Below, one piece after another: positions 39,756 through 56,815 of a stretch of DNA of 64,000 nt. The translations under genes and the position numbers were made by a program. The first letter of the stretch is position 1; each line of letters opens with the position of its first letter. This DNA comes from Candidatus Bathyarchaeota archaeon (GTDB taxonomy: Archaea; Thermoproteota; Bathyarchaeia; 40CM-2-53-6): positions 1-64,000 of the forward strand of contig CAVPLU010000016.1 in NCBI GenBank assembly GCA_963706285.1, in the 5' to 3' direction. The notes below the pieces were generated by a model. It saw nothing but the letters and a program-made list of their open reading frames with translations, searched no databases and was not told the DNA's origin.

Positions 39756-39995
39756 CGCTGTCCCGCTACAACGACAACACGGCCGATTTAAGCAGTTACC
39801 AGCCTCCGTCGATCGTTCACAGCAAGCCTACAAGCCTGCAACGTATGGAATCGTGTTGGACTTGCAGTGAAGACAGCGTATTCAATTCAACGTTAGTCTT
39901 ATAGGTTCTAGGGGGAACGTACTCGCGGCCATACCCTCAACAAACATGGGATAGAGCCTAGATCCAGCGATCCTATTGTCGGCGTGAACCCGGTC

Positions 39996-40268
39996 ATGGA
40001 ACAATCAAACCTAGTTCGCATCGGCAAGAAACCTATCATGAATTATGTGGTCGCTTGCGTCACACTGTTCAATTCGGGCGCCGACGAGGTTATGGTCCGT
40101 GCGAGAGGCCAGGCAATCACAAAAGCCGTTGAAACAGTCCTGATGCTTAGAAACTCGTTTGTTAAAGACCTCGACATTGAAGACATAACGATCGGATCTG
40201 AAGAAGTCACAAGACTAGACGGGACACGAGGCAGTATCTCAACAATAGAGATCCTGCTCGGAAAGTAG
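39996..40268 (+). CDS. albA: Chromatin protein Alba
   Basis: IGKKPIMNYV, RARGQAITKAV, ISTIEI. Confidence 0.93.
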   Translation: MEQSNLVRIGKKPIMNYVVACVTLFNSGADEVMVRARGQAITKAVETVLMLRNSFVKDLDIEDITIGSEEVTRLDGTRGSISTIEILLGK

Positions 40269-40354
40269 TAGAACGAGAGCTCACCAGTTTCCCAGTTGCC
40301 CCAAATCCTTTTTGACCCGACACGAGTAGCTTTCGGCCTGCCGGTAAGACCGTA

Positions 40355-41704
40355 ATGAGTGGGAAGGCGACGTATCCGAAGATCGTAGTCACACCCCCAG
40401 GACCTAAGGCTCGCGAGCTTGTCCGCAGCGATGAATCCTACATCTCAAGTTCCATGGTAAGATGGTATCCGCTTGTAGCAGAATCAGGATCAGGATGCAT
40501 CGTCAAAGACGTGGATGGTAACGAATTCATCGACTTCAACTCCGGATTGGCTGTTCTCAACGTGGGTCACTGCCATCCAAAGGTCGTCAGCGCAATCACC
40601 GAACAGACCAAGAAGCTGATCCACTACTCCTACACCGACTTCTACTATCAACCGATAATCGATCTCAGCAGAGAACTCACCAAGATCACGCCCGGTGCCC
40701 ACGCGAAGAGGGTCTTCTTCTGCAACAGCGGCACCGAAGCGATCGAAGCTGCGATGAAAATGACCAAGTGGCACACGCGCAACAGCCTATTCCTGAGCTA
40801 TACAGGCGCATTTCATGGACGAACCCTTGGAGCAGTCAGTCTAACCGCAAGCAAACCAGTGCAACGTAGACACTTCTTTCCCCTTGTACCCGGCACGACG
40901 CACGTACCCTATCCGTACTGTTACCGTTGCCCATTCCATCTAACCTATCCCGAATGTGATCGCTGGTGTGTAGACTTCATCGAGGAGGAGGTCCTCAACA
41001 AGTACGTTCCAGCTGAGAATGTTGCCGCGATGTTTGTTGAGAGCATCCAGGGCGAAGGAGGATATGTGGTTCCGCCCGACGACTACTTCACACGACTACA
41101 GAAGCTCCTCGAAAAACATAACATAATCATGATCGACGACGAGATCCAGTCAGGAATCGGCAGAACAGGCAAATGGTTCGCAATCGAGCACTTTAACGTA
41201 ATTCCGGATGCAGTCTGTATCGCGAAGGCAATAGGCTCCGGCCTTCCTATAGGGGCGCTCATCAGCAAAGATGAGATGATGGACTGGGAAGGCGGATCAC
41301 ACGCTTCGACATTCGGTGGAAACCCAGTCGCCTGCGCTGCAGGCCTCGCAGTCATCGACGTGATCAAACAGGAGCACCTGCTTGAGAACGCTACCAAACA
41401 AGGAGCGCACCTAATGAATCGCCTCAAAGAAATGCAACGCAAGTATCCCATAATCGGCGACGTACGCGGCAAAGGACTCATGGTCGGCGCCGAGATCGTC
41501 AAAGACCCAGACACAAAAGAACCTGGATCGGAACTATCACGAGAGATCATGACGAAATGCTTCAAACGAGGACTCGCAATCATAACATCAGGCAAATCCA
41601 CAATGCGATTCGTACCCCCGCTAGTGATCACGCGAGAACTACTAGACGCCGGACTCGACGTGTTCGAAGGCGCAGTCAAAGAAGTCGCAGGTTCCGCAAA
41701 ATAG
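40355..41704 (+). CDS. Class III aminotransferase (4-aminobutyrate/acetylornithine type)
   Basis: FHGRT, DEIQSGIGRTG, AKAIGSG, STFGGNP. Confidence 0.9.
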   Translation: MSGKATYPKIVVTPPGPKARELVRSDESYISSSMVRWYPLVAESGSGCIVKDVDGNEFIDFNSGLAVLNVGHCHPKVVSAITEQTKKLIHYSYTDFYYQPIIDLSRELTKITPGAHAKRVFFCNSGTEAIEAAMKMTKWHTRNSLFLSYTGAFHGRTLGAVSLTASKPVQRRHFFPLVPGTTHVPYPYCYRCPFHLTYPECDRWCVDFIEEEVLNKYVPAENVAAMFVESIQGEGGYVVPPDDYFTRLQKLLEKHNIIMIDDEIQSGIGRTGKWFAIEHFNVIPDAVCIAKAIGSGLPIGALISKDEMMDWEGGSHASTFGGNPVACAAGLAVIDVIKQEHLLENATKQGAHLMNRLKEMQRKYPIIGDVRGKGLMVGAEIVKDPDTKEPGSELSREIMTKCFKRGLAIITSGKSTMRFVPPLVITRELLDAGLDVFEGAVKEVAGSAK

Positions 41705-41720
41705 ACAACCCTGTCAGGTT

Positions 41721-42434
41721 TTGGCCGCAGGGAAGCCCTTGGTAACGAGACACCCGTCACTCGCCTTGCAGAAACAAATGCTCGACACGATTCTGCGCCG
41801 ATTCCCAGTGCGAAACCGACCCGGTTCCACTTCCGCGTTTGAAACCCTGATCCAGACTGTCCTGTCGCAGAATACAAGTGACGTGAACAGTGGCAGAGCG
41901 ATGGAAAGGCTTCAGAGCCGGCTTGATATCACGCCTGAAGTTCTTTCGCGGACTCCTATCGACGAACTGATTGAATCTATTCGTCCTGCAGGACTTTACA
42001 GAGTTAAGGCTCCCAGGATCAAAGAGATCTCATCGATAATCATCAATCGATTCAGCGGCGATTTTGATTCCATCCTGAAAAGGAGACCCGAAGAGGCACG
42101 ATCGATCCTAACGGAGCTGCCTGGCGTCGGCTACAAGACCGCAGACGTCGTGCTCGCGTTCGTTACGGGTCACCCGACAATTCCAGTTGACACACACGTG
42201 ATGAGAGTGAGCAAACGGCTGGGGATAACTCGAAAGAATGCGGGTTATGAAGAGATCAGACTCGGGCTTGAGAGGCTCGTGCCTCCTAATCGGAGGGTGA
42301 GAATGCATCTCTCTCTGATTCGATTTGGACGTGAGATCTGCAAGGCACCAAAACCGCTGTGCCCTCAATGCCCAGTGAATAGAACCTGCCCAAGCTCCAC
42401 AACACGTGTGAGAATCCAACACCACATGGTCTAG
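41721..42434 (+). CDS. nth: Endonuclease III
   Basis: LSQNTSD, LPGVGYKTA, VDTHV, C-x6-C-x2-C-x5-C. Confidence 0.92.
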   Translation: MAAGKPLVTRHPSLALQKQMLDTILRRFPVRNRPGSTSAFETLIQTVLSQNTSDVNSGRAMERLQSRLDITPEVLSRTPIDELIESIRPAGLYRVKAPRIKEISSIIINRFSGDFDSILKRRPEEARSILTELPGVGYKTADVVLAFVTGHPTIPVDTHVMRVSKRLGITRKNAGYEEIRLGLERLVPPNRRVRMHLSLIRFGREICKAPKPLCPQCPVNRTCPSSTTRVRIQHHMV

Positions 42435-42554
42435 CTCTAATACACCGAATATATGTCATCTCCACATTCATATTATGGCGAAATCACCATTTTATAACAA
42501 CATTTCCAACAACTAATATACTGTCAAATACGCCCTATAGCTCCCGACCTTCAA

Positions 42555-43121
42555 ATGAACACGCGGGAAATCACCGGCACCGCCATCCTCAGTGCCTTGG
42601 TCGTGGTCTTCGACTATGCACTCAAGTTTGCAGGAATCAAGATCCCGTTTCCAATGCTCCCGTTTCTGAAATTCGACCTAGACGGCATTCCAGTAGTGCT
42701 ATCTCTCCTGTTATACGGCCCGTACTCCGCTGTGACAACATGTTTCGTAGCTCTCGTGGCAATCCTTGCTCGAAGTGGCGACGCCCTCAGTGCGTCAATG
42801 AAAGCTCTAGCTGAATTTGCAACCGTCCTCGGAATGATACCATTCTACGCCGTCAGCTCAAATCGACTCAAAGGATTAGCTATCATCCCAGGAATGGCGA
42901 CCAGAGTTGTTGTGATGCTCGTTGCGACTTTGGCCACGTGGCCTCTGTTATTCAATTCGCTGGGCGCTGTTGTTGCTTTCCTTCCTTTCTCTGCTTTGTT
43001 CAACGCTGTCGCAGCTGTGATCAGTGTCGCAGGCGGATTCATCATCTACGAGGCCCTGAGCAAAAGGGCACCCGCCCTGCTGCACAACGCGAACGGACAC
43101 AACTCACGACGGCACAAGTAA
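42555..43121 (+). CDS. ECF transporter S component
   Basis: PFLKFDLDGIP motif and 5-6 TM helices. Confidence 0.8.
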   Translation: MNTREITGTAILSALVVVFDYALKFAGIKIPFPMLPFLKFDLDGIPVVLSLLLYGPYSAVTTCFVALVAILARSGDALSASMKALAEFATVLGMIPFYAVSSNRLKGLAIIPGMATRVVVMLVATLATWPLLFNSLGAVVAFLPFSALFNAVAAVISVAGGFIIYEALSKRAPALLHNANGHNSRRHK

Positions 43122-43143
43122 CTCGCAGAACTATGGAGTGCGA

Positions 43144-43434
43144 CTAGACTGCGACCTCTCTCGTCTTCTGAATCAGCTCTGTGATGAGCTCGGGTTTTCG
43201 TGGCGTGAGCACGCGAGATCGTCCAACTTCGAATACTTCCAGCAATCTGGCCGTTCTGAGAACGTGAACGTGCCTGTAGACTGCAGCATAGTCCATCTTC
43301 AAGTTTCGCGCAACGGCCTTTATGTGAAGCGGCTTCTTCGTCTCGATGAGCATTTTGAGAATTCTGAGCCTAACAACGCTGCCAAGCGCGTTGAAGATCG
43401 TGGATGCATTTCTAAGATCTTCTTCTGGGGGCAT
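43144..43434 (-). CDS. ArsR-family winged-helix regulator
   Basis: FNALGSVVRLRIL..VYRHVHVL. Confidence 0.8.
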   Translation of the reverse strand: MPPEEDLRNASTIFNALGSVVRLRILKMLIETKKPLHIKAVARNLKMDYAAVYRHVHVLRTARLLEVFEVGRSRVLTPRKPELITELIQKTREVAV

Positions 43435-43501
43435 TCTCTATCATCCTGAATAATGGATAGATGTCATTTATGATATCTTTGCTAACAAAATCGCGTTTGC
43501 G

Positions 43502-43771
43502 CTATGGACTCAAGCGTTGTTGACCGTACATTGTGAGCGCCCACACGTAGGGGCGGTGCTTGGATCGCTCGATGAGGCGCTCCTTCTTCATTGACCTCAG
43601 ATGGTATATGACGCAGTCATAGCCAAGACCGCTCCGCTTTGAGATGTCAGAGGCGCCTCTCTTGGCTTCCTCCAAGACGAACAGGATCTTCGAACGAGCT
43701 CTCAATCCTGCTTTGACATTGCGTTTCGTCGTAAGACGTGCTTTCGGATGCATCTCATTCCTTGCCATCAT
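43502..43771 (-). CDS. Small winged-helix protein downstream of DP2
   Basis: ISKRSGLGYDCVIYHL..PYVWALT. Confidence 0.7.
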   Translation of the reverse strand: MMARNEMHPKARLTTKRNVKAGLRARSKILFVLEEAKRGASDISKRSGLGYDCVIYHLRSMKKERLIERSKHRPYVWALTMYGQQRLSP

Positions 43772-43783
43772 GCGCCACGTTGC

Positions 43784-46700
43784 CTACATGAAATCCGCCA
43801 AGGCTGGTTGCTTCTTCTCTTGGCTCTCGTCAGCTTCTTCGCGGAAGAGAGACTTCAGCTCTTCCTGAAGAAGGAGCAGCCGTTGACTGTTGTAGATTCC
43901 AAGGTCATATCGTCGAACAAGACCTCGGGCCAGGTCTAGGTACTTCTCGATGGTGCCCCTGTAGACGGTCATCGTAATCTTGCCTCCGCACTTCGGGCAG
44001 ACTCCTACTAGCGGAGGGCGGCGATACTTCGCATTGCATTTCATGCATCGCATGCGCTGCGTCGAGAAAGCTCTCAAATTGCCGATCAAGTCTCTCATTA
44101 GATGTGTCGAGAGTACTCGTCGCGCCACGTCCGCTGCAACGACCGCACGTATCTTCTCCGCGAGATTGAGCTGCGCGGACATCTTGTCGATCATGGTCGG
44201 TAGCTGGGTGTAGGCGCTCTCGTGGGTTCCGGTGTTTATGTCTCCTATCTCATGTGTGAAGCCGATCGGCTGGAGAATTCGGTCGCTTCCCAAGCGATGG
44301 ACGACGACTTCGATCAGGTCAGCGACTGCTTTTGGATCGGCGTTCTTTGATGCTTCATCGAAGAACCTTACCGGAAAGCTGTTCACGGCTTCAAGGTTGA
44401 ACGCTTGACGAGCAATCTCTGAGGGATTCATTACAACGGTTAGAAGCATCGGCGCATCCATGATGCCTCCAATCCGGGATGGTAGAAACGACCTTGAGAA
44501 GTTTATCAGAACATCCAACGCCAGCGTGACAGAGTCTTCGTCGCCGTCGCAATCTCGTCGTTTCGATGCATGCCAGAACGGATGGGCGAAGCATACTCTG
44601 GCCTTGGTGAAGCCAATGATTCTGCCGATTATACCTACGGATGTGTGAGGCGAGAGCCCAACTACAAGATGTCCAACCAGATCGTCACGACTCTTCATGT
44701 TGTAGAAAGATGGGAGATCGTAGAATCGTGTCAACAGATTGTCGACAAAATCTGCGACTCTCACGAGGTAGTCTCCGCACGAATCGTTTACGATAATATC
44801 TTGTGATTCTATCGGAATGACTTGATTGGCGTTCTCAAGCGGATTTCCATCAGCGTCTGTATCATAGCCCAGTTTGCGAAGCGTCTCGACGGTGACGCCA
44901 ATCTCGGCTGGTCGGAAGTGAGTCAGAGGAGCGTTTGTCGCATCAAACCTGACGGTGCCGTCCTTGAACATGGAGAGGTCGTACCTTGCGCGAAGGATGC
45001 CCTTCTCTAGCGGTTCTGGGCACCTGGAGCCGCTCATCAGACTCTTCACGCCCTTCACGACCTCAGGCTCCTCTCCCAAACGCAGTTTCTTCGAAGCGGC
45101 AGACCAGATCTCGCTCACTGCGATGGCTGTTCTCTCATATGGACGCGCGTTAATCTTGCATGCGGGGCAGAGTTCTTGCGAGAGTGTCCTCCCACATTTC
45201 GGACATATCATCTCGACCTCTGTTCTGCTCGCGCATTTTGGACAGAGAGTCTTGTAGGTGATAATTCCACAAGTTTTGCAGCTGCGTCTGATCAGCTCTG
45301 CCTCTACGATACTGCCTGACTTTGCCGCTTCCACAATGTTACGTCTTGCTCCGCCCGCAAGTCCTACGGGAAACAGGCAATGTGTGACTGGACGCATCTC
45401 TCTTCTCTTAGCCTTCTCAGGTCTGCCCATCCTTGCCCCTATGAACGTCCCACCTCGAGTTAGGATGGGAAATCCTGCAACTATTCCTGCAGCTTCCAAG
45501 CCGTGATTTCCCACATGGTCAGGCATCGGTTTGCCCACGCCTAGACATGCTGCGAGCACGATTGCGTCCTCGCCAAAACAGATGCTGCCATCTTGGACTT
45601 TGTGAGGAATGCACAATGTTTCAAGGAGGGCTTTGATCTTCGGTTCGTTTGGAGCTACGACTGCACTCTCTGGGTCAACCAGACGAGGACCGAGCCTCTC
45701 CCTAAGGTAAGTCCAATCTTCGGCAGAAAGTCTCTCCCAGAACCAGGTATAGCGTGGATGAAGAGGCACCCCGAGCCTCTGAGAGACCATCAAGCACTCT
45801 TGAGGGGATGGAAACGATCGTAGAGGCTCCTCCATGAGCAACTTCAACCGAGCTTGGGCTATACCGCAGGCATGCTCGACCTCCGACAGCGACTGAAAGT
45901 CCAGCTCGGTTCGGTTCTTGAGTAGCTGCGCCCACCATTCTTCTGTGAATCCTGGAGATGCAAGGGGTCTATTGTTCTCAAGGAATTCCCCGTAGGAGAT
46001 GAGCAAATCTCCGACGAAAAGCACTGACTGGATGGATTTCTGCAATTGTCTTGCTTGGTCGGCGCTGTCGAGCCTGACCACTGAACCGTCGCTCAGCTTG
46101 ACTATGGGAGGCTCTATGGTGTCAACTGGCGTGACGATGCCAGCTTTCCCTGGTCTTTCGATTCTCAGCTGTGTTCCGATCGCTGGGAAGTCGTCCAGGG
46201 CCACCATTGTCGAAGGATGGATTCCAATCGCCGCCATGCCTGTGGCACGTGTTCGGCCATAGCGAAGCCTGAAGCCTCCCAGCGCCCCGGGAAAGGAGAA
46301 GATCGGCCGGCCAGCGACAACATCCTCCATGAACATCAACTCCTTTACCTCGTCAGCCTCTGGTGACGGCTGACGAAGATCACGCAGCCAATCCCATCCG
46401 GCGAGGTTCAATCTCTCGACGATCTTCACTACCTTCTGGCTGCGGCCTATGAGACCGTCATTGACGACTCGTAGTGCACCGCCTCTAACGCGGTTAGTCT
46501 CTATCCTAGGCACGTTTCTGTACGACGCGACTTCAACCTGGTCTGTCTCGACACCAGTGATTTCTACCGGCAGCTTCAGAATCGCATTGTACAGCTCGTC
46601 ATCAGGGATGTGATACTGGAACCGCGCGACCTCGCGTTCGTAGAGCCTGAGTTCTTCTACGAAACGTTTAGCCTCAATCTCAGTCGCTTTGTACTTCCCA

Positions 46701-47188
46701 AGCCCACAGATCTGGCGAACATATTCAGCCACGACGACTGTTAGGCCCATCTCGGTGCCGCCTGCGGATCTTATGGGACCCGCGAAGTAGAGTGCAAGAT
46801 ACTTGGTTTTGTCAGGATTACTCTTGATCTTGACTGTGTTGATTCCTTGAAGAGGAGCAGCTGTCACACCTTCGTCTAGGATCGCTGCAGCGGTACGTAT
46901 CGCCTGCTCCGTCGCACATTCGGCCTCTGTTGCGAAACCAGCGAGCGTTATCTCCTCTGCAATTTTGATTGCGACTTCCTCGCGTGGAATCATTGAGGAT
47001 AGTTCACGGATTCTTACCGCTATGCCAGGTGGGCCTACGGATTTCTCGACCCTTTCAGCGACATCCCTTGCGACCTTACATTCTGGTTCGAGCGAGGGAT
47101 CCAGTCCCTTCGAATGTGCGATCCCTGCTAGTTCATGGAGTTGATTGAACTGAGTCCGAAGACGGTCGCCGTTCGGACTCGTCAGCAA
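43784..47188 (-). CDS. polC: DNA polymerase D large subunit DP2
   Basis: AGPIRSAGGT, RMGRPEKA, KRRDCDGDED, GGIMDAP, C-terminal Zn finger. Confidence 0.97.
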   Translation of the reverse strand: MLTSPNGDRLRTQFNQLHELAGIAHSKGLDPSLEPECKVARDVAERVEKSVGPPGIAVRIRELSSMIPREEVAIKIAEEITLAGFATEAECATEQAIRTAAAILDEGVTAAPLQGINTVKIKSNPDKTKYLALYFAGPIRSAGGTEMGLTVVVAEYVRQICGLGKYKATEIEAKRFVEELRLYEREVARFQYHIPDDELYNAILKLPVEITGVETDQVEVASYRNVPRIETNRVRGGALRVVNDGLIGRSQKVVKIVERLNLAGWDWLRDLRQPSPEADEVKELMFMEDVVAGRPIFSFPGALGGFRLRYGRTRATGMAAIGIHPSTMVALDDFPAIGTQLRIERPGKAGIVTPVDTIEPPIVKLSDGSVVRLDSADQARQLQKSIQSVLFVGDLLISYGEFLENNRPLASPGFTEEWWAQLLKNRTELDFQSLSEVEHACGIAQARLKLLMEEPLRSFPSPQECLMVSQRLGVPLHPRYTWFWERLSAEDWTYLRERLGPRLVDPESAVVAPNEPKIKALLETLCIPHKVQDGSICFGEDAIVLAACLGVGKPMPDHVGNHGLEAAGIVAGFPILTRGGTFIGARMGRPEKAKRREMRPVTHCLFPVGLAGGARRNIVEAAKSGSIVEAELIRRSCKTCGIITYKTLCPKCASRTEVEMICPKCGRTLSQELCPACKINARPYERTAIAVSEIWSAASKKLRLGEEPEVVKGVKSLMSGSRCPEPLEKGILRARYDLSMFKDGTVRFDATNAPLTHFRPAEIGVTVETLRKLGYDTDADGNPLENANQVIPIESQDIIVNDSCGDYLVRVADFVDNLLTRFYDLPSFYNMKSRDDLVGHLVVGLSPHTSVGIIGRIIGFTKARVCFAHPFWHASKRRDCDGDEDSVTLALDVLINFSRSFLPSRIGGIMDAPMLLTVVMNPSEIARQAFNLEAVNSFPVRFFDEASKNADPKAVADLIEVVVHRLGSDRILQPIGFTHEIGDINTGTHESAYTQLPTMIDKMSAQLNLAEKIRAVVAADVARRVLSTHLMRDLIGNLRAFSTQRMRCMKCNAKYRRPPLVGVCPKCGGKITMTVYRGTIEKYLDLARGLVRRYDLGIYNSQRLLLLQEELKSLFREEADESQEKKQPALADFM

Positions 47189-47261
47189 GGGTTCCGGCCT
47201 TCAAGTAGGTGTCAAGATGGATCAGCGGATGTCCGGATTATTAGCTGGTCTGGTCAGCTTT

Positions 47262-47522
47262 TCACTTCTGGAGCCGGAGGCTTGAGGCTGTACCGGTTAG
47301 GTAGTACTTGTCAGTGAACTTGCAGTACACGTCGACCATCTGCGTGCCTCGAGGAACATCAAATTCGTCTTTCACCCCACATGCGGCACAGTGAATGGCT
47401 GCCATACCTGCGCTTTTTGGCAGGATGACCTTCATGGCATCTTCATTGCAGACCGGGCAAGTGAAGACTGTTGGCAGCTTCTTCTTGACGATCCTGATGA
47501 CACGTCTACGTCGACGACCCAT
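47262..47522 (-). CDS. elf1: Transcription elongation factor Elf1
   Basis: MGRRRR..FTCPVC..CAACG..VDVY. Confidence 0.9.
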   Translation of the reverse strand: MGRRRRRVIRIVKKKLPTVFTCPVCNEDAMKVILPKSAGMAAIHCAACGVKDEFDVPRGTQMVDVYCKFTDKYYLTGTASSLRLQK

Positions 47523-47667
47523 GCTAATCTCACTGTGACGCATGGGTGATGCGCCACTTATTTCAACGTTCCATGCGATCTTGGGAACCAGTCGAGCAAG
47601 GGTTATCAGAGCGGAGGAATGAGATTGCCGGGGATACGAAACTGTATCTCCTAGAGAGGTCCCTAAA

Positions 47668-48153
47668 ATGACCGCGGAACAAGCTCAATTACCCATCGAC
47701 TGGTCTCTCGCCACGCTCAAGGATGATAGACTTGCGAAGATACTGCTGCGGAACAGCCATCTCACACAAGTTCAATTCGCCACTTTGATCATTGATGCCC
47801 TATGGCCAACAACTCAATCAGCGCATGAGAATGAGAAGTCTAGGTCGAGTCGGCGTAAGGTAAGCAAGGGCGCATTCAACAGATCCCTGGCTCAGGCTCG
47901 CGGAAACGTCATCAAGTCCATCTACACGGTCTTCCTACTCTCCTATTTCGGCCTGTTTGATAGCCCTAAATTGGAACCTTTTCTGCGGTTAGGCGATGAA
48001 ATGAAAACTTTCCTTGACGCCAAGCAAGAAACGGGGGTTAAAGGCGAAGCTGCAGCCCTTGACGCCATGAAAACACTGGAAGATGCGTTGGAAAGCTCCA
48101 TCAGCGACCTCGCGAGGATGAATTCCTTCAAGCGTCAGCGAGATCTCACGTGA
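47668..48153 (+). CDS. Hypothetical protein with an HTH-like segment
   Basis: LLRNSHLTQVQ, VSKGAFNRSLAQARGNV. Confidence 0.7.
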   Translation: MTAEQAQLPIDWSLATLKDDRLAKILLRNSHLTQVQFATLIIDALWPTTQSAHENEKSRSSRRKVSKGAFNRSLAQARGNVIKSIYTVFLLSYFGLFDSPKLEPFLRLGDEMKTFLDAKQETGVKGEAAALDAMKTLEDALESSISDLARMNSFKRQRDLT

Positions 48154-48433
48154 CATCTGCCAGACGCGCATTGAAGCCAAGGCCGGCAGATCACAGTCAC
48201 GCTTGAAGAATGATGCGGTGTGATATCACACGGGTCACAGTCATGTGATCCACAACTCCTACCTTAGCACGAACCTATCTCCTGAAGGCAATTACGCAGA
48301 AATTGAGCGTAAATGGGAGGGCTAGATCACGCGACTCTCTCTCGAATGGGAACTCCTAGGAAAGACATGTTCGACCCGCGATCACGGCTGAGATCACGAT
48401 CGTGACGTGTGTGACGCGTCACAGCCAAATCAC
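48146..48433. repeat. Array of TCAC/GTGA half-sites and palindromes
   Basis: 15 half-sites counted by hand; palindromes TCACGTGA, GTGTGATATCACAC, TCACGATCGTGA, TGTGACGCGTCACA. Confidence 0.8.
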
Positions 48434-48520
48434 AAGGGTCAAAGACTGTGGAATTGACAAAGTCGCAGTATTCAAGACATAAAAGCCTAAGAGGGGAATT
48501 GTCAGGCGGCATGGATTACC

Positions 48521-49225
48521 TTGGATTATTTCTGGCTGTTCGCACCCATTTCGGCGGTTTTCGGAGCTCTACTGACTGGAGTTGTGCTTCGAAGGCTTGA
48601 CATTTCTCGAATGAGCTACCGCGAAGCGAAGCAGATGCTGTCAGCGATCGTTGGTTCGCTGTCGAATCGGATCGAGCAGAATGAAGCACTCACGAAAGAA
48701 TTGTCAGAGCAGCTCGAGATCCTGTCGGCAAACCATGCACGCGTTAGTGTCGAAGGACAAACCGCTGACAAAGAACGACTTCTCATCTTCATGCAGGACT
48801 GGATGGGGAACCTGAAGCGGTTCATTGAGAAAGTGGATGGACTTCAGAAGAGCCTCAAGAGCGCTGAACATGAAATTCAGGAGATGCGAGTTCGCGTCGA
48901 ACAGTTGAGCGGTGCTCGCGCCCAAAGCTCAATCCCTTCAGAAGCACCAGTGGGTGTTGTGACAAAAGAGACGCTTACGAGGCTCTCGCCGACCGAGAAA
49001 ACTGTGTTGGAGCTTCTGATAGGTGGCCCAAAGGCAGCTCCTGAGATTGGGCGACTTGTAGGGAAATCACGTGAGCACACAGCCCGAATGATGAAGTCGC
49101 TCTTCGAACAGGGTTTCGTCGAGAGAGAAGCAAACCGTCAACCATACCAGTACCGTATCAACGACAAAGTTGGAGAGGTACTAGGACGCCCTTCTCAAGC
49201 AGAGGCTATTCAACGCGAAGGCTAG
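48521..49225 (+). CDS. Membrane-anchored coiled-coil protein with a C-terminal winged helix
   Basis: N-terminal TM, heptad-rich middle, LSPTEKTVL..SREHTARMMKSLFEQGFVER. Confidence 0.8.
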   Translation: MDYFWLFAPISAVFGALLTGVVLRRLDISRMSYREAKQMLSAIVGSLSNRIEQNEALTKELSEQLEILSANHARVSVEGQTADKERLLIFMQDWMGNLKRFIEKVDGLQKSLKSAEHEIQEMRVRVEQLSGARAQSSIPSEAPVGVVTKETLTRLSPTEKTVLELLIGGPKAAPEIGRLVGKSREHTARMMKSLFEQGFVEREANRQPYQYRINDKVGEVLGRPSQAEAIQREG

Positions 49226-49617
49226 GCGTGCGCTGAGCGAGAGCAGTAGCGCCAACTACCGGGAGAACCGGAACGGTATAGGAGACCTCTGTCGACAAGC
49301 CTTGAAAGGTAGGTCGCAACCGTCGTCAGGGGAATTGGTTCGGCATACAATTGCTGGTACAATGTCCTGACTTCATGCGAAGAAAATGTGGCTTCCCGAA
49401 GCCTGTGAACTACGAGATCTCGAACGCGCTCCAGTTTGGTACGCGCGTATTGGGATGGATCCTGGGTTGCTGATTGTGAGGAAACGCCGCCCATGAGCTC
49501 CGTGTAGTCGAGGATTCTCGCAATCTTCTCTCGAGTAAGAGGGCCCTCGAGAGAAACGGTATGCCGGCAGCCTGAATCGTCATAGAACTCAATTCTAAGA
49601 CGTTTGACTGCCAACAC
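49222..49617 (-). CDS. Winged-helix protein adjacent to oriC
   Basis: FSSHEV..IPLTTVATYLSRLVDRGLL..WRY. Confidence 0.75.
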   Translation of the reverse strand: MLAVKRLRIEFYDDSGCRHTVSLEGPLTREKIARILDYTELMGGVSSQSATQDPSQYARTKLERVRDLVVHRLREATFSSHEVRTLYQQLYAEPIPLTTVATYLSRLVDRGLLYRSGSPGSWRYCSRSAHA

Positions 49618-49689
49618 GCGACACTCTCACGAGTCTGTGTGAACGACGTGTAGATAAAGGGATTATGTGTGACATGACTGTTACTCCTT

Positions 49690-50180
49690 GGTCAGTTCCA
49701 ATGGAAAAATGAAGTATTCCAGCGGAAACGGAGGGGTGTGTCCTAGTTCACTTAATGTGAACCTATTTCTTGCCTGAAAACTTCCACAAAGCCCAGACCT
49801 GGTTGAGATATGATTATGATTACACATGATGACAGTTGAATGTGAAGTGTCCCTAACCCCTGCCTTTCCAGTGGAGTTCGTTTTGACATTTCACGGTCTG
49901 AAAAAGAGTCTTAGTGTTACTACTACAATAATTAGCATAACCTTCCTTATCCTAAAACTCTCGCTAATATACACAGGATTTTTTTCTCAACACTACACTT
50001 CACTTCTTTAGGAATACGTTTCTCCAGGGGAAGTGCACGGGTGCCGGGGAGGTAATGCTCAACTCCATACAAATCAATATGATTCAGGTTTCACGATTTT
50101 TTTGTTGCAACTAGTCTTACTTCTTCGACAATGATGATTATTATGAGTTCAAGTAGAAAGACGGGGATTACCAGTGGAGA
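49690..50180. other. Replication origin oriC with inverted ORB elements
   Basis: TTCCAGCGGAAACGGAGGGGT (49717-49737, +) and CTCCACTGGAAAGGCAGGGGT (49876-49856, -); mini-ORBs near 49696, 50022 and 50170; AT-rich tracts; directly upstream of cdc6. Confidence 0.88.
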
Positions 50181-50186
50181 TGCCTA

Positions 50187-51452
50187 ATGGAGAAGCCTAG
50201 TATGAAATCAGCAGACGTTCTTGAAGGCATCTTTGAGAACTTCCTCACTGGACCACAACTGTTCATTAATCGAGAAGTTCTGAGAAACGACTACATCCCC
50301 AGCACGCTACCTCACCGTGCAGAACACATTCAGAGACTAGGCGGTATACTCGCGCCGGCCCTGAGTGGTTCCAAGATATCCAACCTTTTCGTGTATGGGA
50401 AGACTGGAACCGGGAAAACCATAGTAGCAAAATTCGTGTTAGAGAGACTGAAGAAGAAGGCCGAGGATGTCGGCACACCTGTTCGAATCTCATACGTCAA
50501 CTGTCGCATGGCAGGAAGCAACTATCGAGTGCTCGCTGATCTCTGTCGCTGCGTCGGAGTTGAGATTCCCTTCACAGGCCTGGCATTAGGTGAAGTTCTG
50601 GATAGATTCAGGACCGGCCTAAACGCCGACAAAACCCCTCTCATAGTTGTCTTAGATGAAATAGACGCCCTCGTCAAGGGTCGTCAAGACGACTCCCTGC
50701 TCTATGAATTGACCAGAATCAATGAAGAGCTTGGCCAAAGCTGGATTGGAATAGTCGGCGTCTCCAACGATCTCCACTTCAAAGAGTTCCTCGACCCTCG
50801 AGTGCTGAGTTCTCTAAGCGAAGAAGAGGTCGTCTTCAGGCCCTATCTCGCAAACGAACTCTACGACATTCTCCTCGACAGAGCCAAACTAGCGTTTGCT
50901 GATGGAATCCTATCGGAACCCCCCCTCCGACTCTGTGCAGGGCTCGCAGCCGGCGAACACGGCGACGCCAGAAGAGCACTCGACCTATTACGAGTGGCAG
51001 GAGAGCTTGCGGAACGCGAAGGCGCACGCACGATCCAGGAGGACCATGTCAAACGTGCGCAACACAAGATTGAACACGACAGAGTCGCCGAAGTGCTGAA
51101 GTCACTTCCTGTACATTCAAAGGTCGTGTTGGTCTGCGCGTATCTGGCCACTAATCAGGCGCCAGAAGGCGTGATCACAGGCGACATCTACGAGGTCTAT
51201 CATGAGCTGTGCTCAGCGGCAGGGTTGGATCCACTTACGCAACGGCGTGTGAGCGGCCTAGTGAACGAGCTTGATGTAATGGGAATTCTCAACGCAAGGG
51301 TCGTAAGCTTCGGCCGGTACGGTAGAACTAAGAAGATAAGACTCGGCGTCTCACCTAGAGTCATCGTTGAAACCTACTCGGAAGACACCCTCGTCGGACG
51401 ATTATTCAGCCACGTACCCAGATCTCTCCAGAAGCGCCCAGGAATCGCTTAG
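50187..51452 (+). CDS. cdc6: Orc1/Cdc6 replication initiator
   Basis: GKTGTGKT, VLDEID, GDARRALDLLR, C-terminal wH with GRYGRT. Confidence 0.96.
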   Translation: MEKPSMKSADVLEGIFENFLTGPQLFINREVLRNDYIPSTLPHRAEHIQRLGGILAPALSGSKISNLFVYGKTGTGKTIVAKFVLERLKKKAEDVGTPVRISYVNCRMAGSNYRVLADLCRCVGVEIPFTGLALGEVLDRFRTGLNADKTPLIVVLDEIDALVKGRQDDSLLYELTRINEELGQSWIGIVGVSNDLHFKEFLDPRVLSSLSEEEVVFRPYLANELYDILLDRAKLAFADGILSEPPLRLCAGLAAGEHGDARRALDLLRVAGELAEREGARTIQEDHVKRAQHKIEHDRVAEVLKSLPVHSKVVLVCAYLATNQAPEGVITGDIYEVYHELCSAAGLDPLTQRRVSGLVNELDVMGILNARVVSFGRYGRTKKIRLGVSPRVIVETYSEDTLVGRLFSHVPRSLQKRPGIA

Positions 51453-52023
51453 AGCTGTCGGCATAGACGACGGCCCATCAAAACGCAGTGGAACAACGAA
51501 GTCATCTACGTCTCACGCCTCGTTGGTCGCAGTCTGGTTTGACCAACTAAGATTCGACCAAATACGCATCGGAGTTCTGGAAGTTGATGGACTGGATTCA
51601 ACCAACGTAATCCTCAAGCTACTCAGGGGAACACGAACAGACATAATCTTTCTTTCAGGAATCACCTTCGCAGGATTCAACATCGTCGATTCTACCCGAC
51701 TTCACAATACGCTTCACATTCCGATTATCGTTGTCTGCCGAGAGAAGCCTGATAATCGCTCCGTCAAACGTGCGCTTCAGAAGCATTTCACAGACTGGGA
51801 GAAACGATGGGAGCTGGTGCGCAAGTTTGGGAGGATATACTCATTCGCGCCGAAACCGTCAGAGCAGCCTCTACATTTTGAAGCTGTTGGCATCTCAGCA
51901 GCCCATGCGAAGAAGGTCATCAGTGCCTACTGTGCCACGTCGAGGATTCCCGAACCTATCCGGGTTGCCGGCATCGTCGCAAAAGGACTAGCTCTAACCG
52001 GCGCGGAGCTAAACGCTCGATAG
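51367..52023 (+). CDS. DUF99 family (endonuclease V-like) protein; true start probably near 51440
   Basis: VGIDDG, VDGLDST, GITFAGFNIVD, IPEPIRVA. Confidence 0.85.
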   Translation: MKPTRKTPSSDDYSATYPDLSRSAQESLRAVGIDDGPSKRSGTTKSSTSHASLVAVWFDQLRFDQIRIGVLEVDGLDSTNVILKLLRGTRTDIIFLSGITFAGFNIVDSTRLHNTLHIPIIVVCREKPDNRSVKRALQKHFTDWEKRWELVRKFGRIYSFAPKPSEQPLHFEAVGISAAHAKKVISAYCATSRIPEPIRVAGIVAKGLALTGAELNAR

Positions 52024-53538
52024 ACATGAAGTCGGTGACGCTAAGCTTCAGCGTCTGAAGGTTCACTACCGGGAGCAGACCAGGCGTAGGCTTTAGGCCC
52101 ATTCGCTGCTGATATTCCGTCTGATGCTTGCCACGCACCCGAGTTCACAATGAGCGTCCCTCGATACTGCTCGTGACCAAAGACGTGAATATGTCCTGAA
52201 TGAAATACGTCGGGCGGATTCTCAATTATCAAATGATCCTCTGGCATTGGCGCGATAGATGTTCGGTTGCCGTACTCAGGAGCCAAATGTCTGCATCGAA
52301 GCTGAAGCTCCATCGCCCTCTCGGGTTTGTCGAAACTCATTCCAGGAGCGCTTGTCAACATGTCCTCAAGGCTTCGGCCGTGATGTACGAGGAAACGTAC
52401 TCCATGAAGCTCCACTTCGCATGGGTTCCCTAGCGACGTAACGTGTCGTGCCTCATAGACGGGTTCACCATACTCTCTCGAGATCGCGGGTTGGGGGAGC
52501 GCCTGTCTTACGCCGTCGTGATTGCCTGGACTGATAATGACTTCCATGTGTTCTGGTATCTGTTGGATGAATCGAGCAGCATACTTGTACTGCTCGTAGA
52601 TGTCTGGAATGGTTAGCTCGTCCTCTTGGCGAGGATAGACTCCTATTCCATCTACGAGATCTCCAGCGATGATGACGTACTTGGTTCGTTGAGCAACGTA
52701 GACTTGTTGAGGGTTTCCCACTTCGCCGTTAAGCCAACGAATTGCACGTTTGAAAGCGTCTTCCAGGAACTTGTTGCTACCAACATGAATGTCAGATAGG
52801 AGAACCGCGTAGACTTCTTCCTTTGCGCCTCGGGGCCTTCTCTCCGGGATATCTGGAAGCGTGACTCTCTGGGCGACGAGGAGACTCCGGCTGCTCTTCA
52901 CGGCTTCGATGCAGACAACTTGGTCGAGCGGAGCCGTTAGAGCCATCTCGTAGAGTTGACGGTCGCGGTCTGTTGGGACCAGAACCTGTGCCGTGTCTTC
53001 GAAATCGTCCACGCTTAGGAAGAGCTTGTTTCCTCGCTCACGCTTATCCATTATCATCCCAATGAACTTCACATGTGCGCTCTGCTGTGCGTTGAGAGCA
53101 TCGGATATCGTGCCTGCATCTCTGGCGTCGCTTCTTCGTTGAAGGATCTCACGCATCTTCACGAATCGGTCTCGGAAGTGCCGGTTGAAGTCGTCCATTG
53201 ATCCACCGAAGGTCGACATGCTGGAAGGGTCTTTCAACACCTTCAATTCGCTCTGGATCTGAGCCGCAACTGGGGCTCCGGCTCTGACGGGTTCGGAGAT
53301 TCGAATCGTCTCAGCCAGCGGGAGCATGTGATTGAGGACTAGTTCAACAACGGGGCGGTCAATCAGGTGTTGCTTAGGATGCTGCTTCTTTGCCGCCGCG
53401 ATCAATTCTTCAGCCAGTCTTATCTTGGTCGAGGCTGCCGGCCGAAGCCTGAATGAGGTCGAAGGCGTCCGTGCCAAATTGCCATCCTGCAGAGAGCACG
53501 CGCTCAACCACATGCCTGAAGCCTTCGTGGACCTGCAA
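51956..53538 (-). CDS. polB: DNA polymerase D small subunit DP1 (frameshifts near both ends)
   Basis: OB fold plus SDIHVGS, GDLVDG, PGNHD, HGRS, HLAP, GHIH. Confidence 0.93.
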
Positions 53539-53681
53539 CCGCGCTGCCTCTTAGCTGATAACTCAGAAGCCCTACTACACCTCTAGATCATGTCAGGGCG
53601 ATCTTAAGCGAAGTGGTGGCCTTCCATGATGGCTTCATTAATCTGGATGCTCGTGGAACGAGTCACTGGTGCTGAAGCCGC

Positions 53682-54656
53682 TTGGATCTCCGTCGACTCC
53701 AAAGAACGTCAGATGGAACATTCTTCGTAACTCTACCCAAACCCTGGGTCGTCAAGAACAGGCTTGAGAAAGGTGCCATTCTAAGTTTCTCGGAGCGGAA
53801 AGACGGGAAGCTGCTTACTGAGCCATATGGCGAGCAGGAACGGAAGATCAGCACGGTCACGTTGGCGCCGAGCCCGATGTTGCGGCGAGAGATCGAGGAG
53901 AATTATCTCCTCGGATACGACGTATTCGAAATAGTCTCACAGCAAGCCATTCACTCAGACACGAGAGAGACGGTGAGAAGGATCGTTCGTAGCTTGGTGG
54001 GTCTTGAGATTGTGGAGGAGGATACGAAGAAGATAGTCATACAATGCCTCATCGAACCATCGCTGCTCTTTCCGGACAAGATCCTGCGAAGGCTCCACTT
54101 GATCACATTGTCGATGCAGAAGGACGCTGTTTCATCGTTTGTTAGCGGCGATTCAAAGTTCGCTCACACCGTGATCGAACGCGACGAAGATGTTGACAGA
54201 CTATACTTCCTTCTCGTGCGAGTTGTCCGAGCGGCTTTGACTGATCCGGCGATCGCTGAGAAACTTGCCACGAGCGCCATAGAGTGCCTCGACCATAGGA
54301 TTCTCGCGAGTCTCGTTGAGAACTTCGCGGACTATGCCACCGATATTGCAGAAAGTACGTGGGCACGGGGAAAAGGTAGAGATATGGAGAGTACGATTCG
54401 AAGCATCGAGAAGGCGGGCGGCATTCTCAACCGCATGCACAAAGACGCGGTTGAAGCCGTGTTTACCAGAAACCTTGCGCTCGCTGAAGAAGCAACAAGC
54501 CTCTACAGGGACGCAGAAACAAGCATCAAGACCGCAGAGCGGGGATTAGTTAACGCAAAGCCGGAAACCATCGATCGGTTGGCAACTGTTGTGTCCGCGC
54601 TGAAAGCGATGTCAGAAATAAATGTCGACATTGCCGATTTGGCAGTCACTCGGTAG
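53682..54656 (+). CDS. phoU: Archaeal phosphate uptake regulator (AbrB + PhoU domains)
   Basis: RRLQ..TLPKPWV, YLLGYD, ERDEDVDRLYFL. Confidence 0.85.
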   Translation: MDLRRLQRTSDGTFFVTLPKPWVVKNRLEKGAILSFSERKDGKLLTEPYGEQERKISTVTLAPSPMLRREIEENYLLGYDVFEIVSQQAIHSDTRETVRRIVRSLVGLEIVEEDTKKIVIQCLIEPSLLFPDKILRRLHLITLSMQKDAVSSFVSGDSKFAHTVIERDEDVDRLYFLLVRVVRAALTDPAIAEKLATSAIECLDHRILASLVENFADYATDIAESTWARGKGRDMESTIRSIEKAGGILNRMHKDAVEAVFTRNLALAEEATSLYRDAETSIKTAERGLVNAKPETIDRLATVVSALKAMSEINVDIADLAVTR

Positions 54657-55215
54657 CTCGTCGCCGCGTCTTGCTCGCGTGTCGATATCGTCTAGCATGT
54701 GTTGCGAGGTAGTATAGTGCGGAGATTGTTTTTGCATCCTGGATCTTACCACGCTCGATCGCTCTTAGGGCTTGACGCAAATCGACGGCCTGAATAGCGA
54801 TTGACTCGTCTTCTTCCTGTTTCCCCTTGGCTGGAATGAGTCGTGTCGCAAGGAAGAAGTGAATCTTCTCTGTGCTATAACCCGGTGCCAGATAGCAGGA
54901 GAACAGCTTCCTAATTCGTTTCGCTGCATATCCAGTCTCTTCGACAAGTTCCCTCTTTGCGCACGATAGAGGGCTCTCGCCTGGTTCGAGCGTTCCGGCG
55001 GGGATCTCCATCAGCTGTCTATGCGTAGCCGCCCTGTACTGCTTAACGACTAGGAGCTTGCCGTTGTCTAGGATGGGGATGATTGCAGCGGCTCCTGGGT
55101 GCTCTACGATCTCTCTAGTAGTCTCTCTACCGTTCGCTAGCTTGACTCTGTCAACGTGTAGTCTGAGTACTCTTCCTCTGTAGATGGTTCGGCTGCTGAT
55201 GGTCGATTCGGTCAT
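54646..55215 (-). CDS. NUDIX hydrolase (ADP-ribose pyrophosphatase-like)
   Basis: EIPAG..AKRELVEETG Nudix box, HPGA, DAKT. Confidence 0.9.
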   Translation of the reverse strand: MTESTISSRTIYRGRVLRLHVDRVKLANGRETTREIVEHPGAAAIIPILDNGKLLVVKQYRAATHRQLMEIPAGTLEPGESPLSCAKRELVEETGYAAKRIRKLFSCYLAPGYSTEKIHFFLATRLIPAKGKQEEDESIAIQAVDLRQALRAIERGKIQDAKTISALYYLATHARRYRHASKTRRRATE

Positions 55216-55354
55216 TATGCTCTTCAGCGTCTCTCATCGAGCACGGATATAGGCCCAGTCCTAAGGAAGGAATTTACACGCTACGCCCCGCAAGAAACAC
55301 TACGATAAGGTACAATAGTACACACGGCGTTGGGCAGAAAGTCCTCCACGGATG

Positions 55355-55717
55355 CTATGCGTGCAGCCACAGAAGGTACGACGCCTGTCCCTTGCAGTGA
55401 GAGCATCTACAGGCAGGGGTTGGAACGAACTCAGCTGGAATCCATGTCTCCAATAGACGGGATTGGGTTTCAAGACCGCAATTTGCGCAGAATACTCCCT
55501 CAAGTGTCCATGCCATCTTTTCTGAACCGCACTCGCATGTTTCTCGTTCGAACTCAAGATCCGCCTTTGATATTCTAACCGCTCGTTTGAGGAACTTCGT
55601 CTTGTAGTATCGTTTCTGTTTCCACATGAGATAGCATTCGTGGGAGCAGACGCGTCGTGGTCTACCGAAACTGTAGGGGATCTCTTTTCCGCAGACGACG
55701 CATGCGTTTTGAGCCAT
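55355..55717 (-). CDS. Multi-zinc-finger hypothetical protein
   Basis: CVVC..CSHEC, CECG..CANCG, CRCSHC. Confidence 0.6.
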   Translation of the reverse strand: MAQNACVVCGKEIPYSFGRPRRVCSHECYLMWKQKRYYKTKFLKRAVRISKADLEFERETCECGSEKMAWTLEGVFCANCGLETQSRLLETWIPAEFVPTPACRCSHCKGQASYLLWLHA

Positions 55718-56048
55718 GGACGGTTCTCTCGCTTTCTTTGTTCGATTGTATCGGCTAGGATGCCAACTGTTTCTTAAGCATATTCGAGTGCTCGTGTAGG
55801 CTCTAATGGGCGGTTACTTTCAGAATAGATGAACACTTCTCGCTCGTGGGAAGTCGTAGAGTCGCAGCATCTTCAGTGATCTCTACTTTAGGGTCGAGAA
55901 TTCTCACACGAACAAGTACATCTCGTCATATGGTTTGTATGGATAGCTAGCAGGTTCTTTGAAAGATCCTCACGCGGGCTCGGGTGAGAGCGTCAGTGGA
56001 GTGATGGTAGGGAACGACATTTATGCGTGGCAAGCATCCGGTCGTGGT

Positions 56049-56188
56049 GCCCGGGTTGCCGAGCCAGGTACGGCGACAGAGCCTATGCGTTTCGGTGCGC
56101 TGGGCGTTGAACCTCGAGATCGCAATAAATCGGACCAAGTAAGCTGTTGGTCCTCTGGGCCGCGTGGGTTCAAATCCCACCCCGGGCG
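56049..56188 (+). tRNA. tRNA-Ser(CGA) with two introns (30/31: 56080-56111; 37/38: 56119-56141)
   Basis: Acceptor GCCCGGG/CCCGGGC plus G73, long variable arm, GTGGG-TTCAAAT-CCCAC T arm; after splicing the anticodon arm is ACAGC-CTCGAGA-GCTGT. Confidence 0.88.
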
Positions 56189-56257
56189 CCTAATCAAGCC
56201 CAGTGCAGACGATCACAAAATCTCCAATCGCGACTAGAGTAGCTTGGGTCGCTGATG

Positions 56258-56512
56258 CTACGCGAAAAGCACCTTTCGCAGGGCGTCTTCGAGCGTATTC
56301 GGATTGGAAAGCGCGGCTCCTGCTAACCGGATTTTTCCGTCAACCTCAACGACCGGAATGATGTTCTTGTATCTTTCAAAGAGCTGCGAATCCGTTGTGA
56401 TGTCTTTGATTGAAATCTCGAAGGATTGCTCATCTCTGAGTTTCAGTAGCTCAGTTAGTACGCGCTCACAGAGATGGCATCCATCCTTTGTGTACAAAAC
56501 CACTTTATGCAA
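56258..56512 (-). CDS. Glutaredoxin-like protein (DUF836)
   Basis: LYTKDGCHLCE, IPVVEVDG. Confidence 0.85.
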   Translation of the reverse strand: MHKVVLYTKDGCHLCERVLTELLKLRDEQSFEISIKDITTDSQLFERYKNIIPVVEVDGKIRLAGAALSNPNTLEDALRKVLFA

Positions 56513-56815
56513 ACGGGCTCACTTCGCTGCTATCAACCGTCGCTCTAATCCCATTGCGACATTGATCAATTTGACTGCACGCGTGTTTCACGTGAGCGAG
56601 CAGCATAACGAATTGTCCATTAGAATCCTGATCCCTAGAAGAGAGACCGACCACTTTCTCATACGAGAGTGGACTCGGACACCACACAATTGCTCGTATC
56701 ACGGAAACTCGGAGTCGAGAATTCTTTGACTGATCTTGTCACATAATAAGCGCCTGTTGGAGAAGAGAAAAATGAGCTAAGGTTTATTCTCAGCTAGTTC
56801 GATGGAGATGATTCC

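Follow-up and report, generated by a model that had tools for sequence, protein, structure and literature searches.

A 64,000-nucleotide stretch of a Candidatus Bathyarchaeota archaeon genome (positions 1 to 64,000 of contig CAVPLU010000016.1; hereafter the window) raises the question of what three uncharacterized genes are doing between DP2 and Elf1 on one side and a predicted origin of replication (oriC) and the initiator gene cdc6 on the other. A preliminary description had read these genes, here named ORFA, ORFB and ORFC (open reading frames A, B and C), as a single candidate module attaching the origin to the membrane. The layout itself is confirmed by the open reading frames (ORFs), by Pfam and by five elements resembling origin recognition boxes (ORBs), and comparison with relatives resolves the trio into two units, ORFA-palindrome-ORFB and ORFC-oriC-cdc6, which are not one three-part machine. 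As to what the units do, we give somewhat less than an even chance to a reading in which ORFB, a putative membrane-anchored protein, binds palindromes around ORFA and would thereby hold origin-adjacent DNA at the membrane, and in which ORFC is a factor coupled to the origin and cdc6.

Layout and conservation of the locus

The island comprises the following features, given by position in the window:
43784-47188, minus strand: DP2, the large subunit of DNA polymerase D (ORF; a tblastn orthologue occupies the same position in 69 of 80 loci)
47262-47543, minus strand: Elf1 zinc-ribbon gene, divergent from ORFA (PF05129, 3.3e-18)
47633-47648, plus strand: box A, about 20-35 nt 5′ of the ORFA start, in the window form GATAC-N5-TGTATC (motif search and reading)
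47668-48153, plus strand: ORFA, 161 amino acids, all-helical, belonging to no family (ORF, profile, AlphaFold2)
48146-48440, no strand: array of palindromes and half-sites (motif counts, conservation)
48521-49225, plus strand: ORFB, 234 amino acids, TTG start; predicted transmembrane (TM) segment, coiled coil and winged helix (Pfam, hydropathy, heptad test)
49222-49617, minus strand: ORFC, 131 amino acids, GTG start; predicted β-hairpin-helix, linker and winged helix (AlphaFold2)
49618-50186, no strand: predicted oriC, an AT-rich gap of 569 bp (GC content, ORB-like elements)
49747-49761, no strand: inverted repeat TTCAC-N5-GTGAA on the ORFC side of the origin, adjoining the G-string and first ORB (motif search)
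50187-51452, plus strand: Orc1/Cdc6 initiator, the PolD-linked copy (Cdc6_C 2e-27, Cdc6_lid 1.7e-25)
between Cdc6 and DP1 in window order: Endo_dU (ORF, Pfam)
52041-53513, minus strand: DP1, followed by an AbrB/PhoU gene (ORF, Pfam)

Conservation was followed in a class sample of 251 genomes (135 of high quality), in which ORFA, ORFB, ORFC and the orthologous Cdc6 were tallied by profile, in a separate set of 80 Bathyarchaeia loci (1.17 Mb) and in an order-level set of 20 loci; the co-occurrence comparison draws on family tallies and about 130 loci from genomes that are related and hence not independent. These genomes are metagenome bins (that of the window, 2,134,064 bp, is 89% complete with 7.5% contamination), orthologue start codons were picked by rule, and heptads, hydropathy and motifs were assessed with tests of our own making. 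The anatomy of the locus, its conservation, the uniqueness of its motif and the co-occurrence patterns are direct observations.

Linkage to the origin in relatives, which the preliminary description had set as its synteny test, was borne out. Among the order-level loci, ORFA and ORFB are adjacent in 20/20, ORFC is present in 17/20 (it was not found in three loci of family f5) and cdc6 lies near the trio, within ~2.5 kb, in 20/20; the 80 Bathyarchaeia loci hold ORFB in 76, ORFC in 74, cdc6 within 5.1 kb in 72 and DP2 in 69. Rearranged loci of genus g2 read cdc6-Endo_dU-gene-ORFA-ORFB-ORFC, or ORFC-ORFB-ORFA directly upstream of cdc6, so that the trio stays together with cdc6 near, and two closed f35 genomes have the order DP2-ORFA-ORFB-ORFC-cdc6-DP1. 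All three genes are single-copy in their own genome. The ORFA profile was found in 204 of the 251 class genomes (122 of the 135 high-quality ones) and in 119 of a phylum-level sample of 301 genomes. A search of 1.84 billion proteins gave 434 representatives at E≤1e-3, and within the class ORFA is a core gene present in single copy. Profiles detected ORFB in 184/251, ORFC in 148/251 and the orthologous Cdc6 in 160/251, and a search with the single ORFB protein recovered it in 42 of 61 relatives (33 of 36 within the same family).

We assign oriC to the gap at 49618-50186 because a cluster of ORB-like elements and an AT-rich stretch adjoin cdc6. The gap has a GC content of 0.38-0.44, and five CCARNGGAR matches lie in it in a single orientation (49698, 49719, 49868, 50024 and 50171, spanning 49698-50179), with none in the remainder of 38001-58000. 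Judged by its sequence, this predicted origin satisfies the usual criteria for an archaeal oriC and abuts cdc6, as it does in relatives, where ORBs are found upstream of ORFC even if the trio has moved off from cdc6. ORFC is transcribed away from the origin and cdc6 is divergent from it; ORFA and ORFB are separated by a spacer of 367 bp, and ORFB and ORFC are convergent with overlapping stop codons. We found no literature on a Bathyarchaeota replication origin with cdc6. Two Orc1/Cdc6 paralogues with 27-29% identity to the window copy are encoded on other contigs (C4:408922-410076 and C9:146393-147469). On the DP2 side the island starts with an energy-coupling factor (ECF) transporter S component and two small ArsR-type winged-helix genes downstream of DP2 (43144-43434 and 43502-43771, both on the minus strand), the second of which is glued to DP2 class-wide (tblastn).

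ORFB is a predicted membrane-bound winged-helix protein

The earlier reading of ORFB as a TM segment, a coiled coil and a winged helix-turn-helix (HTH) is supported for the window protein. The Kyte-Doolittle 19-residue maximum, 2.03 at residue 5, predicts an N-terminal TM helix at about residues 5-25; the heptad periodicity of the coiled coil (~92-133) was reached by 0 of 1000 shuffles; and residues 163-213 (domain ~155-215) match the TrmB winged helix with an E value of 1.2e-5 and 25.5 bits, against a PF01978 cut-off of 25.6. PF01978 is also a precomputed match in some close homologues, and among the Atlas look-alikes 62-82% of members carry MarR in the five best clusters listed (ranks 1-6). 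The recognition-helix region is invariant among 33 orthologues. Because basic residues follow the hydrophobic N-terminal helix, the C-terminus is expected to lie inside the cell.

A TM segment is predicted in 33 of 43 ORFB entries (42 distinct proteins, one having been entered twice; one start was probably cut short), with 3-10 residues ahead of it. TM-positive ORFB also occurs in other classes, in families f35, f47, f52 and f46 and in Caldarchaeum, whose type of ORFB totals 130 amino acids and consists of the TM segment, a linker of ~30 residues and the winged helix. The Caldarchaeum genes CSUB_C0745 and CSUB_C0746 form an overlapping ORFA-ORFB operon in which both are annotated as "hypothetical" and the second also as "uncharacterized membrane protein". 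No literature was found on these locus tags, and the accessible portions of the literature on membrane-bound archaeal MarR/TrmB regulators and on the origin and segregation of Nitrosopumilus contained nothing on these proteins.

At the start of ORFB (48511-48529) the sequence GGATTAY is duplicated, and an out-of-frame ATG 10 nt upstream opens a 50-residue frame that likewise starts with MDY. We retained the TTG start, which is conserved, because relatives lack this upstream ATG.

A locus-specific palindrome appears to depend on ORFB

An array of palindromes had been noted between ORFA and ORFB, and the counts substantiate it. The 370 bp at 48150 hold 14 RTCAC/GTGAY half-sites, the maximum in the genome (mean 1.43, standard deviation 1.20; next window 10); the array is kept in 20/20 order-level ORFA-ORFB spacers. 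Within it, TCACGTGA spans the ORFA stop codon, the perfect 12-mer TGTGAYRTCACA stands at 48219-48230 and occurs once in the whole genome, and a 14-bp palindrome lies in the spacer at 48409-48422. Ten sites in the genome, scattered, match TGTGAYRTCACA with at most one mismatch. The other half-site-dense windows, at C10:188609 and C16:78505, are repetitive coding sequence without palindromes and were set aside.

Under equal base frequencies, the 10-bp core would be expected about 8 times in the window's own genome, where 9 exact copies occur, and 4.5 times in the 80 loci, where there are 166, of which 152 lie within 700 bp of ORFA. Because the core is at chance level genome-wide and the 12-mer is unique, the palindrome is a mark of this locus and not of a regulon; a role as a genome-wide regulon mark was rejected on these chance-level counts away from the locus. 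Its placement is just as specific. In the 72 loci with ORFA followed by ORFB, 58 of the 83 palindromes are centered 2 bp beyond the final base of the stop codon of ORFA, the TGA being inside the motif, at a variable 80-400 bp from the ORFB start. A second palindrome, present in 57 of 80 loci, stands 380-630 bp 5′ of ORFA, families f1 and f5 have extra copies at the ORFB promoter, and locus L048 has two palindromes within the hypF coding region. Most palindromes lie away from core-promoter positions.

Where hypF is inserted beside ORFA, it also has its TGA stop inside a palindrome (L048 9800-9811, L043 6489-6498), and in L048 one palindrome is common to two convergent stops. Locus L043 further contains 3.3 kb without real ORFs (6492-9818), composed of decayed segmental duplications of hypF and ORFA 3′ ends with a palindrome in each, and a 126-nt inverted duplication that flanks ORFA (10312-11585). 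An Rfam scan of 47200-50400 and of L043 6300-11700 returned zero families; a scan for sigma-70 promoters and terminators, a method ill-suited to archaea, stayed at shuffle level.

The presence of the palindrome follows that of ORFB. All 76 ORFB-bearing loci have at least one exact copy no farther than 700 bp from ORFA. The palindrome is absent from the two loci of the set in which ORFB is truly missing (L075, L106) and, over ~20 kb each, from five more such loci that represent five families (L054, L056-L059); a search of five whole genomes, four of them the sources of these loci, gave no match to the ORFB profile. Families f2, f7, f8, f10, f18, f21 and f23 yield 0-1 ORFB profile matches each, and ORFA persists. 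Because lineages without ORFB keep ORFA yet lose the motif, the palindrome appears to depend on ORFB and not on ORFA. This co-loss, a site compatible with a dimer and the invariant recognition helix make ORFB the best candidate for the palindrome-binding protein.

ORFA has a promoter box of its own

ORFA had been called HTH-like, a label that we could not sustain: it matches 0 families in Pfam and NCBIfam, a consistent HTH profile match was obtained in 0 of 33 orthologues, and its AlphaFold2 model of six helices has a predicted local distance difference test score (pLDDT) of 56.8, too poor for a fold search. The profiles of ORFA and ORFC found nothing under E 0.1 among PDB sequences. A complex prediction for ORFA with ORFB residues 27-234 scored 0.00, which gives no verdict and is evidence neither way.

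Box A lies ~20-45 nt upstream of the ORFA start and downstream of a TATA-like box; in ORFA-centered loci this placement was judged from the overall pattern of coordinates rather than for each locus singly. Of a set of 159 loci, 71 carry the exact form GTATAC-N5-TGTAT, with a single site in each; in L136 and L156 the variant is palindromic and matches both strands. Box A also occurs in two loci of other classes, L156 and L157.

ORFA could still be the binder of the palindromes around its own gene, with ORFB binding elsewhere or tethering ORFA as a membrane-anchored antagonist, an arrangement that we regard as quite improbable. It would account for palindromes on both sides of ORFA, one of them part of its stop codon, and for the operon that ORFA and ORFB form in Caldarchaeum-type genomes, where the two genes overlap or adjoin. 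Genome G127 (locus L050) retains ORFA and three palindromes around it without ORFB, and the conserved core of ORFA bears some resemblance to the HTH of sigma-70 region 4/DUF134 (1 of 38 distant homologues matches DUF134 at 5.8e-4, under the cut-off; the Atlas lead is a score of 0.80 to a cluster with Sigma70_r4 in 14% of members). Yet 7 of the 8 ORFB-less loci with full context lost their palindromes and kept ORFA, a consistent HTH match is missing throughout the 33 members, and the different box in its promoter is the more natural target for ORFA. In L050, a gene for an XRE-HTH and CBS-domain protein (8777-9460; call read from the translation) occupies the position of ORFB.

ORFC follows the PolD-linked Cdc6

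At the origin edge, the convergent gene had been described as encoding a winged-helix protein, and the structural model agrees. In the AlphaFold2 model of ORFC (mean pLDDT 82.7), residues 5-42 form a β-hairpin and a helix, and a disordered linker leads to a canonical winged helix at 61-126 (pLDDT >93). A Penicillinase_R-like match was obtained in 25 of 35 orthologues (19.6 bits for the window ORFC against a cut-off of 22.6), and Foldseek against PDB gave no match at E≤0.001, only generic winged-helix regulators with a best E of 0.02. From cdc6, ORFC always lies beyond the ORB field, even where insertions part it from ORFA and ORFB. Between the TATA box and the start codon of ORFC, GTGAA-type direct repeats are present class-wide (window 49618-49660). 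The inverted repeat TTCAC-N5-GTGAA occurs at the same position in several relatives and 8 times in the genome, with 8.1 expected; GTGAA/TTCAC density shows no enrichment in the window's own genome, and solely the position in ORFC promoters is conserved. Both elements look like putative operators for ORFC or for another origin factor.

Family tallies separate ORFC from its neighbors, as in the following five families (genomes with the gene out of genomes sampled):
f2: ORFA 11/13, ORFB 1/13, ORFC 11/13, this Cdc6 11/13
f8: ORFA 3/3, ORFB 0/3, ORFC 3/3, this Cdc6 3/3
f10: ORFA 4/5, ORFB 0/5, ORFC 4/5, this Cdc6 4/5
f18: ORFA 1/7, ORFB 0/7, ORFC 7/7, this Cdc6 7/7
f22: ORFA 48/59, ORFB 52/59, ORFC 1/59, this Cdc6 1/59

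ORFA thus occurs without ORFB (f2, f8, f10), ORFC without the other two (f18), and ORFA with ORFB without ORFC (f22), and the proposal that the three genes form one obligate module is not supported. In f22 the sole genome with ORFC, G105, is also the sole genome with the PolD-linked Cdc6, and since that orthologue is present in 1 of 59 genomes, the origin and initiator of this family must differ. It follows from the tallies that ORFC goes with the PolD-linked Cdc6 and its origin, and that ORFA-ORFB can do without this Cdc6. Loci of f22, the largest family sampled (L048 is an example), retain DP1, ORFB, palindromes, ORFA, Elf1 and DP2.

The trio might instead descend from a plasmid or virus that integrated beside the origin and brought along iterons and genes for its own replication or partition. 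Small winged-helix genes with repeat arrays would suit such a remnant; ORFC has weak RepC-like matches (RP-C at 0.055; 2 of 35 up to 2.4e-4), and AspA, the centromere-binding protein of pNOB8, is among its weak structural neighbors (E 0.034). We consider such a remnant highly improbable, since the genes are single-copy, keep the same chromosomal place and diverge along with their hosts across the class and other classes, and the GC content of the trio is in line with its flanks. Reading of the ORFs in 42.5-54.7 kb, with no dedicated tRNA or phage search, revealed no integrase, no tRNA target and no terminal repeats.

Weighing a tether against local regulators

Several observations weigh against the tethering of the origin by ORFB. 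The Pfam score of the window ORFB falls 0.1 bit short of the curated cut-off. The anchor, rod and head that had been proposed for ORFB describe the window protein and hold in part for its family: coiled-coil length ranges from ~110 residues to none, and the TM segment is truly missing in 9 of the 42 distinct proteins (six loci of genus g2, and L060, L154 and L157). As gene and motif are kept with these TM-less variants, anchoring is dispensable for whatever keeps them. A centromere-like array would be expected to hold more than the one or two exact palindromes that most Bathyarchaeia loci have, and the palindrome directly follows the ORFB TATA box in f5 and overlaps the expected transcription start in g2, a placement that is classical repressor geometry. 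ORFA-ORFB lies 14.4 kb from the orthologous cdc6 in Caldarchaeum and 21.5 and 31.5 kb from it in two other classes; together with the persistence of the pair without this Cdc6 in f22, these distances mean that a strict origin function is not required. G127 has its palindromes and no ORFB, and all the putative protein-motif assignments come from co-occurrence among the related, non-independent genomes. An amphipathic helix replacing the TM segment in the ORFB of g2 was considered and rejected, the hydrophobic moment there being no higher than elsewhere in the protein.

Much of this would suit an ordinary cassette of three autoregulated transcription factors whose neighborhood to oriC is inherited gene order, the main competing explanation, which we hold to be somewhat unlikely. 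ORFB would then be a membrane-sequestered regulator released or inactivated by a signal, the palindromes would serve as its operators or as a roadblock where ORFA ends, and ORFA and ORFC would each repress their own promoter. Distinct motifs at the ORFA promoter (GTATAC-N5-TGTAT) and the ORFC promoter (GTGAA), with the palindromes as a third type, have the look of autoregulation and also count against a tether. The cassette is equally favored by the palindromes at the ORFB promoter in f5 and g2, the independent loss of the three genes, the survival of ORFA-ORFB in f22, the motif retained with TM-less ORFB, and the two ArsR-type winged-helix genes of the same island, where regulators are therefore common. 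It sits uneasily, however, with the best-conserved palindrome, whose fixed place is the stop codon of ORFA, away from a promoter and 200-400 bp from where ORFB starts, and with the second palindrome far upstream of ORFA, whose promoter has another box. An anchor without an outside domain offers no obvious sensing route, the linkage to cdc6 and PolD outlasts several independent rearrangements, and a local regulator is not usually conserved in single copy across a whole class and further.

Membrane tethering by ORFB is the reading that we prefer, tentatively, and from the sequences we infer its steps, namely which protein meets which motif, membrane insertion, dimerization and an effect on the position or firing of the origin, as follows. 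ORFB would span the membrane once, exposing its N-terminus to the outside and keeping its C-terminus in the cytoplasm, and would dimerize through its coiled coil; its cytoplasmic MarR/TrmB-type winged helix would bind the TGTGAYRTCACA palindromes that bracket ORFA. Since ORFB is predicted to be membrane-embedded and has no outside domain, this binding would place origin-flanking DNA at the membrane. In most Bathyarchaeia that DNA lies 1-5 kb from oriC, and a binder fixed in the cytoplasmic membrane would hold it there. The same binding would probably tune the expression of ORFA and ORFB as well, with ORFA a putative helical partner having its own promoter box. ORFC may act at the origin edge or on cdc6 and may repress itself through the GTGAA-type repeats just downstream of its TATA box.

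Comparison with known systems

ToxR and CadC in bacteria and ArnR in Sulfolobus are TM-tied winged-helix or HTH regulators that bring target DNA to the membrane, and they carry an outside or HAMP sensor domain. ORFB, in contrast, has 3-10 residues before its TM segment and nothing outside.

RacA, RocS and RicO are origin-to-membrane anchors of Firmicutes. They resemble ORFB, whose function is predicted, in combining a sequence-specific DNA-binding head (a putative one in ORFB), a coiled coil and a membrane element in one polypeptide, in a motif confined to the origin-proximal region and in having no dedicated ATPase. There is no sequence relationship, and the order is reversed: in these proteins a MerR/MarR-like HTH stands at the N-terminus and contact with the membrane is made via DivIVA or a C-terminal amphipathic helix, whereas ORFB has an integral N-terminal TM segment and a C-terminal winged helix. 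RicO is reported to bind nine sites over about 700 kb (bioRxiv 10.64898/2026.03.06.710092), compared with 1-4 palindromes within ~1 kb here.

With SegA/SegB of Sulfolobus and with ParABS the locus shares a candidate site-specific binder and a clustered cis element near the origin. It differs in that SegB and ParB folds were not detected and that no gene for a Walker-type ATPase of the ParA/SegA kind is present in 42.5-54.7 kb, the part of the genome searched, where Cdc6 is the sole ATPase; on this point the preliminary description, which had set the module apart from SegAB and ParAB, was right. Set beside partition-type arrays, the window locus has 14 half-sites and 1-3 palindromes, and most relatives 1-2 exact palindromes. 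SegAB itself is only "thought" to act in segregation in the accessible text of a review (PMC7617429).

The C-terminal domain of ORFC superposes on BlaI/MecI, Fur, RosR, ArsR and AspA (Foldseek E 0.02-0.07, probability ~1.0, 63-81 columns). In BlaI/MecI, however, the winged helix is N-terminal and followed by a C-terminal helical dimerization domain, whereas that of ORFC is C-terminal; unlike all these proteins, ORFC has a β-hairpin-helix without structural match and is tied to oriC and cdc6. A precedent for the small accessory origin factor that ORFC might be is UBP of Sulfolobus, which the available part of its description presents as a ucm-binding, non-initiator origin protein with a β-rich saddle fold and hundreds of genomic sites (PMC12141716). 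UBP is not related to ORFA, ORFB or ORFC, and its gene is not described as origin-linked in that part of the source (PMC12141716).

Implications for archaeal origins

The positioning and segregation of archaeal chromosomes are an open field: the accessible part of a 2024 review names only SegAB, whose driving mechanism is not known, and mentions no DNA-membrane tether (PMC7617429). The present analysis defines three cis-elements and three uncharacterized protein families, whose genes adjoin the main origin and the PolD genes throughout the class and into other classes. ORFC, confined to families with one Cdc6 lineage, is thereby a candidate accessory origin factor. It is conceivable, and in our estimate unlikely, that the locus represents an ancestral origin-handling system of Archaea, shared by Bathyarchaeia and neighbors such as those of the Caldarchaeum type, in which a membrane-embedded ORFB dimer would clamp the unique palindrome pair beside oriC to the membrane and ORFC would gate origin firing or cdc6 expression at the origin edge. 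If true, this ancestral system would position or separate sister origins without a ParA-type motor, and ORFB would be the first archaeal protein to be described as anchoring origin DNA to the membrane.

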